Shown here: positions 3,589 to 36,397 of the stretch, one piece after another
Layout: every line of letters begins with the position of its first letter
Numbering within the stretch: the first letter of the stretch is position 1
Origin: a virus
Virus genome (UHGV): UHGV-0168748
Strand: one strand, 5' to 3'
DNA: 44,209 bases
Made by a program: the position numbers and the translations under genes
Notes under the pieces: generated by a model
What the model was told of the DNA's origin: nothing
Databases searched by the model: none
What the model saw: only the letters and a program-made list of their open reading frames with translations

Positions 3589-4623
3589 TTATACTGCGAC
3601 GGGGGCCGCAATATGTGGATGAGCTTGATAATCGACTAATTCGAAGTCTTCGTATTTGTATTCGAAGATAGAATCAGGTTTACGTTTGATAACCAGTTTA
3701 GGTAGCGGGTAGGGTTCGCGTGTAAGTTGAAGTTTTGCCTGCTCCAGATGGTTAGAATACAGATGAACGTCTACACCACTATAAACCAACTCGTCCGGAA
3801 CCATGTTCAGTTGTTGAGCAACGATGTGTGTTAACAACGCGTACGAAGCGACGTTAAATGGCGCGCCGAGTAGGTAATCGTTGCTCCGCATCATGTAAAA
3901 ACATGAAAGCTTACGGCGTGGAATGCCCTCACGATCTAAAGTTTCATGAAGCCGCTCTTCATCATCAATATCTTCGTGATTAATAAGCGGTGCGCTCGCA
4001 AATTTTTCCGGCTCGTTTACTTCGTACCAATCCAGTCGTTCAAGCAGTGTCATTTCTGTAGTGTAGAATTGGAAATAGTTGTGGCACGGGTTAAGTGCCA
4101 TATCGTCCAGGTCGGCTACGTTCCAGGCACTAACGATAATGCGTCGGGAGTCAGGGTCTTCACGAAGCTGTTGGATAACTTTACTGATCTGGTCATGTGC
4201 TTTTTCATAAACCAAATACGTCGTACCATCTTCCTTCATATTCCCGATATACTTGTAACCACGTTGTATTAGTTGTTGTGTACGCCCTACGTCATGGCAT
4301 TCCACAACCTTACAATCGCGCCATTCACGCCACTGTTTACCATAAACAGGTCCTAATTCCCCTTCCGCATTCGCCCACTCGTTCCAGATTCTTACTCCGT
4401 TCTCTTGCAGGTACTTCACGTTAGTGTCGCCGTTCAAGAACCACAGCAGTTCGTGGATAATACTTTTCAGGTGAACTTTTTTCGTAGTGACTAATGGGAA
4501 GCCTTCTCTCAGGTCAAAACGTAACTGACGACCAAAGACAGAAAGAGTTCCTACGCCTGTGCGGTCTTCCTTAACAACACCGTTATCCAGAATGTCTTGC
4601 ATTAACGCTAAATACTGTTTCAT
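3589..4623 (-). CDS. thyA: thymidylate synthase (ThyA family) with two insertions
   Basis: [36 protein letters not shown], catalytic [17 protein letters not shown]; C-terminal 50 aa near-identical in pattern to E. coli ThyA. Confidence 0.9.
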
Positions 4624-12771: not shown

Positions 12772-12810
12772 GGGTAGGGTAAACCCTACCCGAACCTATT
12801 TATTTCTTTT
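12772..12810 (+). terminator. hairpin with T-run in plus orientation, inside a minus-strand gene block
   Basis: GGGTAGGGT-AAA-CCCTACCC followed by a T-rich tract on the plus strand only. Confidence 0.4.
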
Positions 12811-14296
12811 TCGTCAGGAACTTCGGTTCTAGACCATCAACAGCCATACCCAGAATGGTGCGTGCGGTTAGCGTACGCTTACCACCTTTCGTTTCCTGGT
12901 CTTTAAACATCCAGTATTCTACCGTGTTGTCCAGAATTTCATTCCAGTCCCATTTCTCGTCAATCAATTTGTAAATCTCACCCATGCTGAGATGATACTT
13001 CATTTCAAGACGATGGTAGTTGTTTTGCATATACGCAATAGCCGCAGTGATTTCCAATGCACGACGTAAGCGTGGGTTATCAGAAATCATATCGCGGATT
13101 GTCGTACGTTGGAATTTCACACCAGGCAGAATGTCCAGTTCTTTGATAGAACCACCACTACCGCTTGAGGTGAAACCAAAGTCCGATTTCTTCAACGTGT
13201 CACTTAAGTAGTGCCACAAGCTCAGGTGGTATAACAGACCCATTTCCTGAGAGAAGATCATTTGGAATTTCACACCGGTGTGACCGCCCTTCGCACGATA
13301 CTGCGTAAAGGTGATAATCTTCAAGTCATTTACCGACGCGTTCATCGCTTTAGAGCGAGACGTCGGATAAAGTTCTTCGTTAACACCGGTCTGCGCGTTA
13401 TAGCTCTGGTCTTTCTTCAGTTCCCCTGATTTCGTAGCAACGATAAACGAGTTCGTTAAAAAGCTAAGCTGGCGACGAGGAATACCTGCGAATTTTAAAT
13501 CATCGTTGGCATCGTCAAGAATTTTCGCATTTGCTTTTTGTGCTTGACGTCCCCCAGCCATGGCTTTACCGGAGTCATCAGCCATCTGTGCTACGAAGCC
13601 CATATAGAACCCACCACGTGCAAACGCTGATGGCCAACGGCTCATCATGTTCGATTTTTGCAGTGCGTCGTGGGCGTTCAGGATGTTCTGATCAGAATCC
13701 CCGATATCTGTTTTTGCGTGCTTGTCTTCCAGCGAACTGGAATGCCACTCAGACAGGGAGTCGATGGAATACAACCAGGGGTCCAGGATTTCTTTTAACT
13801 TACGACGAACCGGGTCAGGGAACGGTGTTACACGAGTTTTTCCAGACATATACTGCTTGAAGCGCTTTTCGACTTCATCACGAATATAGTCACTGTAATA
13901 CTGTTCCCCAGGCATTACGTCAGAACCGACCAGGTTATAACGCCCCTCGTGAATGAGTTCCAGAACAGAGGTTCCGTCATCGATACCGTTGGCGTTCATG
14001 GCAGAGATATACCCAGTTTCTAAACGATCGAGGGCAGCAGACACTTCTGTATCGTACTTAGAACCCCACTCTGCTTTATAGCGTTGTAGGATTTGGAAAA
14101 TACAGAAATCCAACAGTGTGGATTTAAACGTGTTACCGCGACCTGCGAAACCCATGATGTGGGCAAAACCACCGTTAAGGTAGTACAAACCATCTTCACC
14201 TTTTTCGTAGTTACCTAAGGCATGATCCATGATGGTATAAACGTTAAAACGTGGACGAATTACTTCACCGATAACTTGCTTAGTTGGGCCTGCCAT
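12800..14296 (-). CDS. hypothetical large protein (498 aa)
   Basis: Track ORF; contains GFAGRGNTFKST, which resembles but does not match a Walker A P-loop. Confidence 0.6.
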   Translation of the reverse strand: MAGPTKQVIGEVIRPRFNVYTIMDHALGNYEKGEDGLYYLNGGFAHIMGFAGRGNTFKSTLLDFCIFQILQRYKAEWGSKYDTEVSAALDRLETGYISAMNANGIDDGTSVLELIHEGRYNLVGSDVMPGEQYYSDYIRDEVEKRFKQYMSGKTRVTPFPDPVRRKLKEILDPWLYSIDSLSEWHSSSLEDKHAKTDIGDSDQNILNAHDALQKSNMMSRWPSAFARGGFYMGFVAQMADDSGKAMAGGRQAQKANAKILDDANDDLKFAGIPRRQLSFLTNSFIVATKSGELKKDQSYNAQTGVNEELYPTSRSKAMNASVNDLKIITFTQYRAKGGHTGVKFQMIFSQEMGLLYHLSLWHYLSDTLKKSDFGFTSSGSGGSIKELDILPGVKFQRTTIRDMISDNPRLRRALEITAAIAYMQNNYHRLEMKYHLSMGEIYKLIDEKWDWNEILDNTVEYWMFKDQETKGGKRTLTARTILGMAVDGLEPKFLTKKK

Positions 14297-27686: not shown

Positions 27687-28184
27687 CTATTTAAAAGAGT
27701 TTGGAATTAAAGACCGAGCTTCTTGGTACAATGCATCGGGTAGATATAACGTGTGATGTTGTCTCCTTGTTTCAAGTTTGTCGTAAAGCCACAAAAAGAT
27801 TTCTTGTCTTTCCCAAGGACGTAACCAACCATTGGCCATTCCCAGTGGAGGGATAGCAACAGAGGTGTCCAGGTTTTCAACACAATCTGCTAATGCGGTA
27901 ATACCCGCAGTAACATAAGAAACTTGGGACTTTAGACGCCAGTGTGTTTTTGTGGGGAGCAGGATACACTTTTCGTCAGGATAAACGTAGACATTTCCAA
28001 TCCTGATTTCGTTTTCGCGACAACGTTTACGATAATCCTGATAAAGCGTAGGGTAGCGTTCTCGACAGGCTAAAGCAATACCGCGACCCATTGCGCCCAC
28101 GCAGTTAATGGTAACGACCTTATAAGCTTCAGGTGCATTAAAAAGGTCGCCGCCGATCTCAGATTCTTTACGTATCGTTAGCAT
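27687..28184 (-). CDS. TARG1/DarG-like macrodomain protein (predicted ADP-ribose hydrolase)
   Basis: GDLF...NCVGAMGRGIALACRERYP and AIPPLGMANGWL match the TARG1-type GDLF / MGxGIA / IGCGL pattern. Confidence 0.55.
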   Translation of the reverse strand: MLTIRKESEIGGDLFNAPEAYKVVTINCVGAMGRGIALACRERYPTLYQDYRKRCRENEIRIGNVYVYPDEKCILLPTKTHWRLKSQVSYVTAGITALADCVENLDTSVAIPPLGMANGWLRPWERQEIFLWLYDKLETRRQHHTLYLPDALYQEARSLIPNSFK

Positions 28185-28271: not shown

Positions 28272-28640
28272 TCATTGATTTTTCTTAATCCACTGTTTGA
28301 CTGCCGTTTCTAAACCTTCGTGCTGTAGACCCAGGCGTTGCATAGCCAACGCTAAGTTGAGTGTATGAACAACCTGTTCACGGAACTGATGATCGTTCAT
28401 GCGGTCCCAGACTTTCTCTACAGCAATATTGTGCTTCCAAAGCAGATAAGCTTCACGACATGATGCACGACGAACTAAGCTGGGTTTAACAAAAGGTAGT
28501 TCGATTTCAGGTAAGTAGCCCAACATCTTAACTAAACGTGTGACTTGTGTGTTACCAAAATCGCCGCATTGATAACAAATTTGTAGAATGTCAAACTCAT
28601 CCAGTGGTAGACCGTAAACTGACGGATTCTCTGTGAACAT
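28272..28640 (-). CDS. hypothetical protein
   Basis: 122-aa track ORF; overlaps the end of 28597-28842 in another frame. Confidence 0.45.
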   Translation of the reverse strand: MFTENPSVYGLPLDEFDILQICYQCGDFGNTQVTRLVKMLGYLPEIELPFVKPSLVRRASCREAYLLWKHNIAVEKVWDRMNDHQFREQVVHTLNLALAMQRLGLQHEGLETAVKQWIKKNQ

Positions 28641-28842
28641 TCATATTCTCCTCAGGCTCGAAATGTGTTTCGGGTGGCAACGTTCCTAAAGCCCCTTGGA
28701 TAGAAGCTGTCAGTGAAGGTTTACCAAAACAAACCTTACCGATTGTTCCTACGTTGGGATGTTGTAAGAACGCTTTGGCGCGTTCGTATTCTTTCCAACA
28801 AATACTCGTATCCAAACCACCCACTCCGTACGATTTTAACAT
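28597..28842 (-). CDS. hypothetical protein, possibly N-terminal part of a split gene
   Basis: 81-aa track ORF overlapping the start of 28272-28640 by 44 nt. Confidence 0.35.
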   Translation of the reverse strand: MLKSYGVGGLDTSICWKEYERAKAFLQHPNVGTIGKVCFGKPSLTASIQGALGTLPPETHFEPEENMNVHRESVSLRSTTG

Positions 28843-28908: not shown

Positions 28909-29352
28909 TTAGAATGATTTGCTAAAATCGACCCACTCACGATCGCGTGAGTAAACCGCTTGATAACCGCGTCGGATGAAATATTCTTTTGCTTCTTTGC
29001 ACTTCGCATACATGCCAACAACGATCTCGCTGAAAGCTTCATCGGCTGCGATTGCTTTAAAAATCTCTTTCATTACGCCACGCTGTCGATAATCCGGCAA
29101 CACATACAGTGAACGTATCTTGAGGGAACCATTACGATTCCGGTAACTGCAATAACCTACTGCCACACCGTCCAGATACACCAGAACTACGCAGTTACCC
29201 TCGATCAGCTGCCGTGCATTTAACTTCGGCACGGCCATTTTGATTTTTAGTAACGTAGCTTGGTGGTCTAAGTAACGGTAGTGTAATTTAAGTAAGTCAC
29301 TTGCTTGTTGCTCACCGACTTTAGAGGATGCGTTCAATAAATAAATTTCCAT
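28909..29352 (-). CDS. GNAT-family N-acetyltransferase
   Basis: GNAT motif A-like YVLPDYRQRGVMKEIFKA; start moved to ATG 29352 with AAGG RBS. Confidence 0.5.
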   Translation of the reverse strand: MEIYLLNASSKVGEQQASDLLKLHYRYLDHQATLLKIKMAVPKLNARQLIEGNCVVLVYLDGVAVGYCSYRNRNGSLKIRSLYVLPDYRQRGVMKEIFKAIAADEAFSEIVVGMYAKCKEAKEYFIRRGYQAVYSRDREWVDFSKSF

Positions 29353-29385
29353 TTGCAAACCTTAGAGACGCAAAAAAGTAAAAAG

Positions 29386-29683: not shown

Positions 29684-29869
29684 CTAATTCCGCCACTCGC
29701 ATTCGCGTTGACGCCAAATCGAACCCCAGAATAGTTTAATCGAATACGATGAAACTACCCATAAAATCATTACCACGCAAAACATGACGTAAAGTATTGC
29801 CAAAATGACCATAAAGCCAAATCCCGCCGCGCTCATCGAACGACGGAACCAATCAGTTTGCATAAACAA
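29684..29869 (-). CDS. small membrane protein (61 aa)
   Basis: Track ORF with hydrophobic core FGFMVILAILYVMFCVVMILWVV; GAGGGAG upstream. Confidence 0.4.
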   Translation of the reverse strand: MFMQTDWFRRSMSAAGFGFMVILAILYVMFCVVMILWVVSSYSIKLFWGSIWRQRECEWRN

Positions 29870-32357
29870 TTTTTACTCCCTCGTTATACACCGCAGGTAA
29901 TGTCACCCCTTCCGGTTCAATGACACAGTACGATGCTTCGTTAAGTTTAGAATGGACTTCAGCTTCGTGGGAGACCACCAGTAACTGCGAGAACTCCCCT
30001 GAGTTTGCTAACGTTTTAATAAAACCAACCAGGTTATTACGGTGTTCTTCGTCCATACCCTCTGAGGGTTCATCCAATAGCAAAGGAAACTGATGTAATT
30101 TCAACGCTTTATACGCAGTCAGTCTGAACATCAGATTGAATATAGCACGTTGTGCCTTAGACCCTTTACGCACATCAGGAACGGGTTCAGGATGTGTTTT
30201 TAGTTGGACAGGAAAAGTATAATCCAAATCACCGTCGGTGAGATCACAAGGCATAACTCGCATGGGGTACGTCCAGACTTGTTCGATATAGCGCGTCATT
30301 AACTCTGTGATTCTGACGATAGCATTGTAAAAATACTTTCTGAGTACACCTTTTTCTGGCGAGAACGCCTGAATCATCAATTTGTTATTAAACTGCTGGG
30401 CTTGTAAATCCGCAAGTTCGCGTTCCAACGTATTGAGCTGATTCAGTTCACTTTCCATTTGACGATAACGCTCACGTGCTGTCGTAAACGCATCCAGTTT
30501 CCCTTCTCGTGCCCGTAAGAGTTCTTCGACAACTGTGTTTGTCAAAGTAACCTTAACGTCATTCTCTAACCGTTCGAATAACGCGCTAAAATCGTCTATA
30601 GCACGTTTAACGCTCTCTAGATAGGTAAGTGTCGTATTAGCTAACTCGTGCTCTCTACGACGCACTGAGAGCGTTTCTGTGGCTTTACCTAAACGCGATT
30701 GTTGGAAAGCAATTTTCTGTTGTAAAGCACCATCGACGTTACCCACAGCAGCTACCGCATCTTGCCATTCTTTTTCTGCCTTCACTAACCGTTGACGGGT
30801 TTCATGATATTCAATAGCAGAATACAGCTCACTGTCAAAAGCCGCGCAGAGACTTCCGAACTGTTCGCGTGATTCTGTAAAGACATTACGTTCTTGTAGA
30901 CACTTAAAGAACATGCTTAAAACCGGGTCCTTTGAGTACGTCAACACGATTTCACGAACCTGACGCATATACGTTACATCAGATTCCAGTTCGACACGAT
31001 CGCGTAATATACTGTCTAACTGTGTTTGAAGCTCCGTACGTTGTTGCTGTTGGCCTCTAATCGAGGTTTCAAGTTCAGACAAAGAACGCGTAACCCCAGG
31101 TCGAAATTTAAACCGACATTGCGGGCAATCTACTTCTGCTGTTTCCAGATAGTGATTTCGTTCGTGGTTCAAGTTTTGTAAAACATTCTCTACGCGCTGG
31201 AGTCTATCTCGCAATCCTGCGGTCTTCTGATCCATCACCAGTAGACGTTCTTCCAAAACGTTGAGCTTTTCGGTTGAATGAATGGCGTCCAGTGTTGTTC
31301 CCAGTCGTTGGCCCCAAACGCGTGCATCGGTTGCAGCACGTAGCTGGTCTAAATTCGCACTCTCACTAAACAGTCCAGGAAAGAGATGCTCGGTGTCCCA
31401 TTTGGTAAGCACTTCACGTAAACGTGCGAGAGTGTTCTTGAGACCCTCGTGATTGCGCATCAGGTAATCCTGTCGCGTTGACTCGTCCATCAATAACGAC
31501 AGATCTTTATTCAACATTGATACTTCCGTTTCTGCTGAAACGACAGCTTCGCGTGCTGTGGCTTCATTGTGTCGTGCGTTCAGTATCTGTTCGTCGGTAG
31601 GCAAACCACCACGATGTTGTAATATTGCGTCGATAGTTGGACCTAAGCCGTTTAATAACGCCTGGATTGATTCGATAGTAACGCCACGATTTAAACCCGG
31701 TAGCTGTTCGATTTGTCGGTTCAGTTCGCGTAAATCCGATTCCAAGCCTTTTAATCTTACCGCTAACTGTTGACGTTCTTCTTCATTTTCAATAACACGT
31801 GTTCGTAACTCTGCGATCTTACGACTGGTAATTTCAATGCCACCGTTTAAGACGGTGAGGTTTTTCCGCAATCTCTGATAGAACCCTAGCGCGTAAGTAA
31901 GGTCAGAGGTACTTAAACGGTAAAACCATTTACGACGTAATTCCGTTCCCGCGTCCGTTAACAACACCTCACCGTTTAACAATTCTTTAATTTCTTTCGT
32001 AATACCAGTGATTTCTTCAACGCGTGAATTGTAAACCTTTGCGTTACCTTGCTCGACAATCTTCGTTCCCGTAGTGAGATTCTCAATATCGCAAACCAAC
32101 GAGTTGCCTTTACGGGCAACTTTGAAACGGTAACGTTGATCGCCGACTAAACAATAATTCGTGTAAGAACCCCCATCCCTGAATTCTGTTTTAGCCGGAG
32201 CTAAGGGCAAAAATACGGACAGTAAACTGGTCTTCCCACAACCGTTCCCACCCAGGATAATCGTTGTCGGTGACTGGATAGTGAAATCGAACGTTTCAAT
32301 TTCGTGCAATCCCATCCCCGTAAAACCTTTGAGTACAATACGTTCAACTTTTAGCAT
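29853..32357 (-). CDS. Rad50/SbcC-like SMC-family ATPase with CxxC zinc hook
   Basis: Walker A GGNGCGKTSLL, long coiled coil with central CPQC, Walker B LLLDEPSEGMD, H-loop VVSHE; start moved to ATG 32357 with GGAGGTG RBS. Confidence 0.7.
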   Translation of the reverse strand: MLKVERIVLKGFTGMGLHEIETFDFTIQSPTTIILGGNGCGKTSLLSVFLPLAPAKTEFRDGGSYTNYCLVGDQRYRFKVARKGNSLVCDIENLTTGTKIVEQGNAKVYNSRVEEITGITKEIKELLNGEVLLTDAGTELRRKWFYRLSTSDLTYALGFYQRLRKNLTVLNGGIEITSRKIAELRTRVIENEEERQQLAVRLKGLESDLRELNRQIEQLPGLNRGVTIESIQALLNGLGPTIDAILQHRGGLPTDEQILNARHNEATAREAVVSAETEVSMLNKDLSLLMDESTRQDYLMRNHEGLKNTLARLREVLTKWDTEHLFPGLFSESANLDQLRAATDARVWGQRLGTTLDAIHSTEKLNVLEERLLVMDQKTAGLRDRLQRVENVLQNLNHERNHYLETAEVDCPQCRFKFRPGVTRSLSELETSIRGQQQQRTELQTQLDSILRDRVELESDVTYMRQVREIVLTYSKDPVLSMFFKCLQERNVFTESREQFGSLCAAFDSELYSAIEYHETRQRLVKAEKEWQDAVAAVGNVDGALQQKIAFQQSRLGKATETLSVRRREHELANTTLTYLESVKRAIDDFSALFERLENDVKVTLTNTVVEELLRAREGKLDAFTTARERYRQMESELNQLNTLERELADLQAQQFNNKLMIQAFSPEKGVLRKYFYNAIVRITELMTRYIEQVWTYPMRVMPCDLTDGDLDYTFPVQLKTHPEPVPDVRKGSKAQRAIFNLMFRLTAYKALKLHQFPLLLDEPSEGMDEEHRNNLVGFIKTLANSGEFSQLLVVSHEAEVHSKLNEASYCVIEPEGVTLPAVYNEGVKIVYAN

Positions 32358-32388
32358 ACCCACCTCCATAATCACGGAGTGTGGTGTA

Positions 32389-35433: not shown

Positions 35434-35904
35434 TTATTGTTCGTATTCGGTGTTCCAGCAAGATTCGAGGAAGTTACCGTCCATCACTTTCTTAACGTTT
35501 TTGGCTGATGGGTTAAAGGTAGCAACCTTTTTCTGGTCGAGGTATAAGTCAAACTCAGTTGCTGTAGAGATTGCTTTTACAAAACTAACCCAAGTATTGT
35601 CGGTATTACGTGTGCCGTCAGGAACTACACCCCAGAACTCTTCACCATCGATAACGAAACTAATGTCGTTATCTTCCGAGTTGGCCACCACATTACCATC
35701 TTTAGAGATAAAGATCTTGTGTGGTAAAATGTTGTTTTCATCTGGATTACCGGTACAGCTAATGGTAATACCCCATCCACCGTTATCGATACCATACTCG
35801 GTTTCACCCATTGCAAAGCCACTACCCCACATGTTCGGAATGGCCTGTGCAGCAGTGGCGCTTACAGTTAAAACGATAGCTAAGAAGATGTTAGACAGTT
35901 TCAT
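35434..35904 (-). CDS. small secreted protein, paralogue of 35942-36397
   Basis: Signal peptide; conserved blocks TISCTGN, SFVIDGEEF, TWVSFVKAI shared with the neighbour. Confidence 0.55.
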   Translation of the reverse strand: MKLSNIFLAIVLTVSATAAQAIPNMWGSGFAMGETEYGIDNGGWGITISCTGNPDENNILPHKIFISKDGNVVANSEDNDISFVIDGEEFWGVVPDGTRNTDNTWVSFVKAISTATEFDLYLDQKKVATFNPSAKNVKKVMDGNFLESCWNTEYEQ

Positions 35905-35941: not shown

Positions 35942-36397
35942 TCAAGGACGGCTATGTCCACAGTTCTTAAAGAAAGTTTCGGGCAGACGCTCACCATCTA
36001 CAATAAAGTTAGCGGCTTCGTTACCGTTGATAGCCACACCGAAGCTTTTTGCATTAGCGATAGCATTAGCGAAGGCAACCCAAGCTTTTTCTGCTTTGTC
36101 GCTGCCGTCAATAGTGGGAATGATATAGTTTTTGCCGTTTACGACAATACTCATTTCGTTGTCTTCGGCATTAGTTGAACCGACCGGTTCACCGTAATAC
36201 CAAACCATGCGACCGTAAAACTTACGATTAGCCGTTGCGGTATCGCAGTTGATAGACAAGCTGTTCCCATTTTCGTCTTCGATTTCGTAAACAGCATTTC
36301 CCGGACTTTGAAGTCCTTCCCAGCTTCCGATTGCGGCGTAAGCGTTATTGAGACCGAAAGTTAAAAGGGTTACTAAGAATGCGATAAAAGTTTTCAT
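35942..36397 (-). CDS. small secreted protein, paralogue of 35434-35904
   Basis: Signal peptide; conserved blocks SINCDTA, SIVVNGKNY, AWVAFANAI. Confidence 0.55.
   Translation of the reverse strand: MKTFIAFLVTLLTFGLNNAYAAIGSWEGLQSPGNAVYEIEDENGNSLSINCDTATANRKFYGRMVWYYGEPVGSTNAEDNEMSIVVNGKNYIIPTIDGSDKAEKAWVAFANAIANAKSFGVAINGNEAANFIVDGERLPETFFKNCGHSRP

Follow-up and report, generated by a model that had tools for sequence, protein, structure and literature searches.

A stand-alone DarG-type macrodomain as a candidate AdfM-family anti-DarT factor in an uncultured jumbo phage

Introduction

Positions 27687-28184 of a 44,209-nucleotide stretch of the virus genome UHGV-0168748 (the whole stretch is hereafter called the window) carry, on the minus strand, a complete coding sequence for a stand-alone, DarG2-type macrodomain protein of 165 residues, a putative ortholog of the phage factor AdfM. 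Our best explanation, to which we would assign a probability of roughly 80%, is that the gene encodes an orphan antitoxin of the AdfM family that removes ADP-ribose (ADPr) from phage DNA in opposition to the host DarTG2 system, and that it does so in a nucleus-forming jumbo phage. The enzymatic activity on ADPr-DNA, the anti-DarT2 role in vivo, and the nuclear localization would all follow for the window protein by analogy with its characterized relatives.

AdfM, which abbreviates anti-DarT factor macro, is the name given by Morgan et al. (Cell Rep 2026; PMC13309987) to PhiKZ gp104, a DarG2-like macrodomain, and to its counterparts PhiPA3 gp108, Goslar gp83, and Asesino gp217. The factor occurs in about half of chimalliviruses (PMC13309987). 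PhiKZ gp104 strips DarT2-made ADPr from an oligonucleotide containing TNTC and, in E. coli, relieves the toxicity of DarT2, and deletion of AdfM costs PhiKZ and PhiPA3 3-6 log of plating on DarTG2-expressing P. aeruginosa (PMC13309987). AdfM also lowers the ADP-ribosylation of DNA from infected cells, its loss from PhiKZ shows a phenotype only on the two strains, among those tested, that carry DarTG2, and green fluorescent protein fusions of the PhiKZ, PhiPA3, and Asesino factors (the last being gp217, YP_009290835.1) localize to the phage nucleus (PMC13309987).

A sequence-only reading of the window had proposed that this gene encodes a macrodomain of the TARG1/DarG subclass and that such a stand-alone phage copy might act as an anti-DarT or anti-ADP-ribosyltransferase factor. 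The proposed role is now supported by analogy, having been demonstrated experimentally for the PhiKZ and PhiPA3 relatives (PMC13309987).

The gene and its fold

The interval 27687-28184 is filled exactly by an ATG-started open reading frame (ORF) of 165 codons plus a stop codon (27687-27689), as the ORF list and the translation indicate. The coordinates given by the sequence-only reading hold; it had named no strand, and the strand is minus, the plus-strand frame of the same interval being broken by many stops. Searches among 1.8 billion representative sequences return 5205 relatives of the window protein at E<=1e-3, and 22 assembled metagenome contigs encode an identical protein, for which the nr entry reads "MAG TPA: hypothetical protein [Bacteriophage sp.]". 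Compared with the copy in a Salmonella assembly, the gene shows 24 synonymous and 5 non-synonymous differences, giving a ratio of non-synonymous to synonymous substitution rates (dN/dS) of ~0.05; compared with two metagenome copies, it shows 8 synonymous and 0 non-synonymous differences. The gene is under strong purifying selection. Given this selection, the many relatives, the 22 contigs, and the matches to Pfam, NCBIfam, PADLOC, and PHROG profiles described below, the ORF is a real gene and not a chance reading frame.

The placement in the macrodomain fold that the sequence-only reading had suggested from short motifs is borne out by profile and structure searches that all agree. The Pfam Macro profile (PF01661) is matched at 26.7 bits, above its gathering threshold of 22, and PHROG 335 at E 1e-33. 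The NCBIfam equivalog model antitoxin_DarG (NF048014) is matched at E 7e-36 over model positions 5-155 of 338, scoring 124.2 bits where the cut-off is 250, and the PADLOC DarG model at E 9e-37 over model positions 6-151 of 329 only. In a sequence search of the PDB the best match is the M. tuberculosis DarG (MtbDarG) macrodomain (5m3i, E 5e-25), alongside that of T. aquaticus DarG (TaqDarG; 5m31/5m3e, E 2e-21). A profile built from 33 family members sharpens the ranking, reaching E 9e-46 for MtbDarG and 5e-43 for TaqDarG, compared with 2e-7 for TARG1 and 1e-5 for alphavirus nsP3.

Structure prediction leads to the same fold. The AlphaFold2 model, computed from the 33-member alignment, is confident throughout (predicted local distance difference test score, pLDDT, 94.3; predicted template modeling score, pTM, 0.90) and consists of one domain that lacks any disordered tail. 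Foldseek places the ADPr complex of TaqDarG (5m3e) first among PDB entries, at E 8e-14, with template modeling (TM) scores of 0.79/0.85 and a root-mean-square deviation of 1.8 A over 157 columns. The ranking runs 5m3e, 5m31, 5m3i (MtbDarG), 7omu, then SCO6735 and TARG1, with the T. africanus DarT-DarG fusion following MtbDarG. There are 186 PDB matches at E<=1e-3, of which the top-ranked are macrodomains or macrodomain-based designs, and a fold search of BFVD returns generic viral macrodomains only. Sequence and model together identify the window protein as a macrodomain of the DarG-type subclass.

Within that subclass, two ready-made labels were considered and set aside. "TARG1-like" is unsuitable given the missing Asp of the TARG1 dyad (see below) and the much weaker profile match, and "DarG" overstates the case for a protein without a C-terminal domain, without a DarT partner, and with a score under the NCBIfam cut-off. 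In particular, the C-terminal DarT-binding domain of DarG is absent, as the window protein ends at residue 165 and folds as one domain in the AlphaFold2 model; the full DarG architecture is lacking.

The same searches bear on whether the protein might instead have a housekeeping role, hydrolyzing soluble ADPr derivatives (ADP-ribose-1''-phosphate, O-acetyl-ADP-ribose, or signals of the cyclic-ADPR type). In favor of this are the labels "putative Appr-1-p processing protein" and "phosphatase" given to relatives, the proposal of Iyer et al. that soluble derivatives of ADPr are preferred by many phage Macro domains, and weak PDB matches to Poa1p-like ADPr-1''-phosphatases (E 0.02-0.06). The labels, however, are generic annotation transfers, and the Poa1p-like matches are confined to residues 12-59 or 22-78 and fall short of those to DarG by more than 20 orders of magnitude. 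Moreover, the Lys/Asn pair of the window protein is the signature of the DarG DNA glycohydrolases, and the family prototype acts on ADPr-DNA and has a phenotype specific to DarTG2. We regard a housekeeping function as highly improbable.

Catalytic residues and substrate-binding loops

The three motifs on which the sequence-only reading relied are all present in the translation: GDLF at residues 12-15, NCVGAMGRGIALA at residues 27-39, and LGMANGWL at residues 114-121. The GDLF motif (28140-28151, minus strand) belongs to the N-terminal strand and loop predicted to line the ADPr pocket; it aligns with GDLL/GNLL of MtbDarG and TaqDarG and with GDLF of TARG1, and its F15 hardly varies across the family alignment. 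The second motif constitutes the putative substrate-binding loop 1 (28068-28106, minus strand), in which N27, V29, G30, A31, M32, G33, G35, and A37 are invariant among the 33 family members. Asn27 (codon 28104-28106) corresponds to N22 of TaqDarG and N23 of PhiKZ AdfM, and the column holds Asn in 203 of 204 DarG-type sequences. Between the two loops lies the candidate catalytic lysine, Lys79 (codon 27948-27950, minus strand), within the motif PTKTHW. It aligns with the first Lys of PTKKHW in 5m31/5m3i and with LITKK of TARG1, and is thereby equivalent to TaqDarG K80, TARG1 K84, and PhiKZ AdfM K78; it is invariant in the 33 members and present in 202/204 DarG-type sequences. Loop 2, PPLGMANGWL (residues 112-121; 27822-27851, minus strand), matches the 117-122 loop of TaqDarG that closes over ADPr. 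Its G115 and G119 are invariant, and N118 and W120 are nearly so within the clade, according to the family alignment.

These positions can be read against mutagenesis of the T. aquaticus enzyme (Jankevicius et al. 2016; PMC5179494), the macrodomain of which by itself suffices as an antitoxin against TaqDarT. There, K80A inactivates the enzyme and abolishes rescue, N22A ranks second in severity, activity is impaired by K29E and by G119E, and H82A and W83A have little effect; W83 was proposed to stack on thymine, and movement of loop 117-122 is needed (PMC5179494). HMMER alignments pair these residues with the window protein as follows: K80 with K79, N22 with N27, K29 with R34, G119 with A117, H82 with H81, and W83 with W82. 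In PhiKZ AdfM, N23A likewise lowers activity (PMC13309987).

A catalytic pair of Lys and Asp had been anticipated by the sequence-only reading, and of this expectation one half stands. The Lys is present and invariant in the family; the position of TARG1 Asp125 (in GCGLDRL) is taken by the invariant Gly119, such that the TARG1 dyad of Lys84 and Asp125 is represented by its Lys only. Since the same position is also Gly in TaqDarG (GAGNGGL) and MtbDarG (GVGNGGL), absence of the Asp is the expected DarG state rather than a defect. Conversely, TARG1 has Ser in the column where DarG and the window protein have Asn27. Because the profile prefers DarG, the Asp125 position is Gly as in DarG, and the DarG-specific Asn is kept, the protein is best assigned to the DarG type and not the TARG1 type, which narrows the broader TARG1/DarG assignment to its DarG half. 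The sequence-only reading had named two outcomes that would speak against it, a failed placement in the macrodomain fold and a loss of the catalytic residues; both were looked for, and neither was found.

Does the closing loop still permit catalysis? Trp120 (codon 27825-27827) replaces a Gly that is found in TaqDarG (G122), in MtbDarG, and in PhiKZ AdfM, and Ala117 replaces G119 of TaqDarG. It is conceivable that these changes have turned the protein into a catalytically impaired ADPr binder serving as a reader or decoy, given that TaqDarG needs movement of its loop 117-122 and is less active upon G119E (PMC5179494), that Trp at the G122 position is essentially restricted to one clade, and that Asesino gp217 in addition has His at the N118 position. 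Strict conservation of K79 and N27 across that clade would nevertheless be unexpected for a non-enzyme, an Ala at the G119 position is common to the active PhiKZ AdfM, the gene is under the strong purifying selection already described, and the model is confident in the loop itself (pLDDT 91 for residues 111-120). Loss of catalysis is therefore very unlikely indeed.

AdfM membership and the Trp120 clade

The window protein resembles AdfM in every respect by which membership can be judged from the genome: homology, stand-alone architecture, conserved Asn and Lys, and, on indirect evidence, a chimallivirus as the encoding genome. BLASTP aligns it with Asesino gp217 at 61% identity over 164 residues (E 2e-73), and a tblastn match falls exactly on YP_009290835.1. 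With PhiKZ gp104 it shares 38% identity over 125 residues (E 2e-28). Taken with the local gene order set out below, these comparisons identify the window protein as the syntenic ortholog of Asesino gp217.

Like the established AdfM proteins, it consists of a lone DarG2-like macrodomain of ~160-166 residues with the same Asn/Lys pair (N27/K79 vs N23/K78) and no adjacent DarT. It differs from them in that the window phage is ~60% identical at the protein level to any sequenced phage, in that its clade has GMANGW where PhiKZ has GCANGG, and in that PhiKZ gp104 has 12 additional residues inserted ahead of loop 2. Bacterial DarG (Taq and Mtb; 5m31/5m3e/5m3i) shares the fold, 33-34% identity, and equivalents of K80, N22, H82, and W83, with K29 represented by Arg. 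Unlike the 165-residue phage protein, bacterial DarG has ~340-360 residues, a DarT-binding domain, and a darT partner in a bacterial toxin-antitoxin locus. More distant is TARG1/OARD1 (4j5r/4j5s), which shares GDLF and a K84 aligned with K79 and is found by Foldseek at E 3e-7 (TM 0.69/0.80), but which differs in ~20% identity, Asp125 in place of Gly, Ser in place of Asn, and a profile match 38 orders of magnitude weaker than that to DarG.

A neighbor-joining tree of 204 DarG-type macrodomains, built on BLOSUM62 distances, puts PhiKZ gp104 basal to a 60-member clade that includes the query and consists exclusively of stand-alone proteins of 151-177 residues. Trp occupies the Trp120 column in 62/204 of the sequences, 59 of them within this stand-alone clade.

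Several observations weigh against the reading of the gene as an AdfM antitoxin. Enzymology has so far been carried out only on proteins with Gly where the Trp120 clade has Trp, and the closing loop differs from those of all assayed enzymes (Taq G119 to Ala, G122 to Trp), G119E being a change that impairs TaqDarG. For Asesino gp217, what has been published is localization. PhiKZ gp104 (~91 bits) scores no better against the query than bacterial DarG macrodomains do (91.5 bits), and monophyly with PhiKZ AdfM is not claimed, the bootstrap on a reduced set being 0/60, or 9/60 without PhiKZ, with an imperfect Kimura distance correction that gave not-a-number values for very divergent pairs. Owing to the similar bit scores and the 0/60 bootstrap, transfer of function from PhiKZ rests on shared subclass and not on close orthology. 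In addition, the search for an ADP-ribosyltransferase (ART) covers 44 kb of a genome of ~230-240 kb, and a phage ART could be encoded elsewhere; chimallin and PicA are likewise not in the 44-kb window, and nucleus formation and protein import are deduced from relatives.

In a variant of the AdfM reading, the Trp120 sub-clade (~59 stand-alone proteins of SPN3US-, Asesino-, and Derbicus-like enterobacterial jumbo phages, the window protein among them) would differ functionally from PhiKZ AdfM. Trp120 together with Ala117 could retune specificity, toward a different base-linked ADPr lesion or toward a different enterobacterial family of DNA or RNA ADP-ribosyltransferase toxins, or the sub-clade could descend from an independent capture from bacterial DarG. 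We consider this unlikely.

Orphan status, target, and proposed mechanism

The observation that no DarT lies nearby, on which the sequence-only reading had built its proposal, survives a profile search: none of the 55 ORFs of at least 100 residues in the window matches DarT or other ART families in Pfam or PADLOC, and the macrodomain gene accordingly has no DarT (DUF4433-type ART) operon partner there.

An orphan macrodomain of this kind could in principle have a different target, reversing protein or RNA ADP-ribosylation laid down by another host ART defense or by a phage ART encoded elsewhere. The macrodomain superfamily acts on many ADPr conjugates, and for viral members sequence is a poor guide to specificity (PMC9503650). 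TARG1, a structural relative, removes ADPr from both protein-Glu and DNA-thymidine (PMC8501950), the changes at Trp120 and Ala117 in the closing loop are clade-specific, and the analysis spans just 44 kb of the genome. Against these points, the profile is far nearer to DarG than to TARG1 or nsP3, and the residues that would distinguish the two types fall on the DarG side: TARG1 Asp125 is absent, the DarG-specific Asn is present, and Trp82, the equivalent of the proposed thymine-stacking W83 of TaqDarG, is kept. The window holds no ART, and the phenotype of PhiKZ AdfM is specific to DarTG2 (PMC13309987). A different target thus appears quite unlikely, and removal of ADPr from DNA continues to be the preferred activity.

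On the AdfM reading, the protein would act as follows. Once triggered, host DarT2 would use NAD+ to attach ADPr to thymidines of exposed single-stranded phage DNA, at TNTC-type motifs, and this modification would block phage replication and packaging. The phage macrodomain would bind the attached ADPr through its Gly-rich loops (residues 27-39 and 112-121), and Lys79, positioned with Asn27, would cleave the thymidine-ribose bond, regenerating unmodified DNA on which replication and packaging could proceed. By analogy with the AdfM proteins of PhiKZ, PhiPA3, and Asesino, it probably enters the phage nucleus, the site of the replicating genome, through the PicA-dependent import expected of an AdfM, for which sequence defines no signal.

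A phage exposed to DarT2 might also be imagined to shed the target motif. No avoidance of TNTC is evident in the window, where 853 sites occur on one strand and 734 on the other, 1.00 and 1.07 times the numbers expected from dinucleotide shuffles (control motifs scatter over 0.90-1.18). This lack of depletion is weakly compatible with repair rather than target depletion.

Other anti-DarT factors

Several phages counter DarT by other means. A conceptual parallel is AdfN, T4 gp30.3 (Johannesman et al., Nat Commun 2025; PMC11825919), which is likewise a toxin-less antitoxin domain that erases the DNA ADP-ribosylation made by host DarT. It differs in having a NADAR fold, in opposing DarTG1, in acting on the guanosine-ADPr made by DarT1, and in occurring in Tevenvirinae, as opposed to a macrodomain and the thymidine-ADPr of DarT2. 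AdfA of RB69/T4 and AdfB of ICP1 are also phage anti-DarT factors; unlike the window protein they are small and non-enzymatic, are thought to bind and block DarT, and have no macrodomain homology. Resistance to DarTG can also arise through escape mutations in the DNA polymerase.

The phage, its gene neighborhood, and its host

The source of the window has no close relative among sequenced phages: megablast with 4 kb around the gene finds no match in 50,697 phage records, which made protein-level searches necessary. By tblastn, the macrodomain is matched at ~62% identity in Seoulvirus, the SPN3US-like jumbo phages of Salmonella, Escherichia, and Proteus, at 58-61% in the Erwinia jumbo phages Asesino, Stratton, phiEaH2, and Machina, and more distantly in phiKZ-like Pseudomonas phages. 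The nearest relatives belong to Seoulvirus, Erskinevirus, Machinavirus, Wellingtonvirus, and Derbicusvirus, each of which the NCBI taxonomy places as a genus within Chimalliviridae. A 457-residue virion protein encoded in the window is matched at a coverage of at least 80% in 289 phage records, and among the matches listed all are phiKZ-like jumbo phages of 210-320 kb.

Gene order agrees with these affiliations. The macrodomain gene is flanked by an SLT transglycosylase gene and by small hypothetical ORFs, in a series that comprises an SbcC/SMC-like ATPase, a GNAT acetyltransferase, small ORFs, the macrodomain, the SLT transglycosylase, a DUF7194 protein and the virion protein, an Rv2179c-like exonuclease, and an RNase H-like protein. 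The local order is identical in the Salmonella phage SPLA3 and the Erwinia phage Asesino, and of the 17 ORFs that the window holds from 19.4 to 33.6 kb, 16 are collinear with Asesino homologs, at 30-82% identity. Judged from these protein matches and their order, the source phage is identified as an uncultured chimallivirus, a relative of Seoulvirus/SPN3US and Erskinevirus/Asesino. Asesino is nucleus-forming according to Prichard et al. 2025, in so far as that study is cited in PMC13309987.

A macrodomain protein 98% identical to that of the window, with the same neighbors, is encoded in a Salmonella enterica isolate assembly (GCA_014613015.1, contig AAWEAX010000007.1, 226,167 bp), and the phage host is therefore probably Salmonella. 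The presence of a jumbo-phage contig in the assembly of a Salmonella isolate points to a carrier or pseudolysogenic state, or else to a culture contaminated with phage.

Between the SbcC-like ATPase and the macrodomain, all on the minus strand, lie the GNAT gene (28909-29358), an 81-residue ORF (28597-28842), and a 122-residue ORF (28272-28640), the counterparts of which in Asesino (gp212-214) and SPLA3 share just 39-45% identity. This block looks like a variable accessory region beside a gene family with an established role in counter-defense, and the neighbors may be anti-defense candidates. The SbcC/SMC-like ATPase itself (840 residues, 29853-32375, minus strand) matches the PADLOC model for LmuB of Lamassu at E 2e-19, probably through generic SMC/Rad50 similarity rather than as a defense gene; no SbcD-like nuclease partner was noticed alongside it.

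Elsewhere in the window, on the minus strand, a 344-residue thymidylate synthase (3589-4623; Pfam E 1e-109) has ~70 residues beyond the covered span of PHROG 160, which suggests an internal insertion, and a 498-residue UvsX-like recombinase (12800-14296) aligns through residues 10-468 with PHROG 97 positions 43-351 only, which implies sizeable insertions compared with typical UvsX. Tandem paralogs of the YfjT domain (PF27224) occupy 35434-35904 and 35942-36397, also on the minus strand, an assignment taken from the precomputed annotation of sister contigs, where the genes are identical; the second is disrupted or replaced in one metagenome variant. Neither tRNA genes nor Rfam families at the gathering threshold are found in the 44-kb window, and a scan for sigma-70 promoters and terminators around the macrodomain gene yields none on the coding strand, with a total no higher than in shuffled sequence.

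Implications

The reasoning of the sequence-only reading was right; the novelty that it implied is gone, since the concept of an orphan macrodomain antitoxin working with a phage nucleus, the AdfM family, and its role were all published in 2026, with a founding member 61% identical to the window protein. What the present analysis would add is reach and focus. It would extend AdfM counter-defense to an uncultured and apparently widespread lineage of Salmonella-associated jumbo phages, with the catalytic residues intact, and it would provide a more informative annotation for relatives that are still named "phosphatase", "Appr-1-p processing protein", or "hypothetical". Recognition of such genes may help predict which therapeutic jumbo phages resist hosts carrying DarTG2. 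The point that it sharpens is whether the Trp120-type closing loop of the enterobacterial clade alters the activity or the specificity of these macrodomains.

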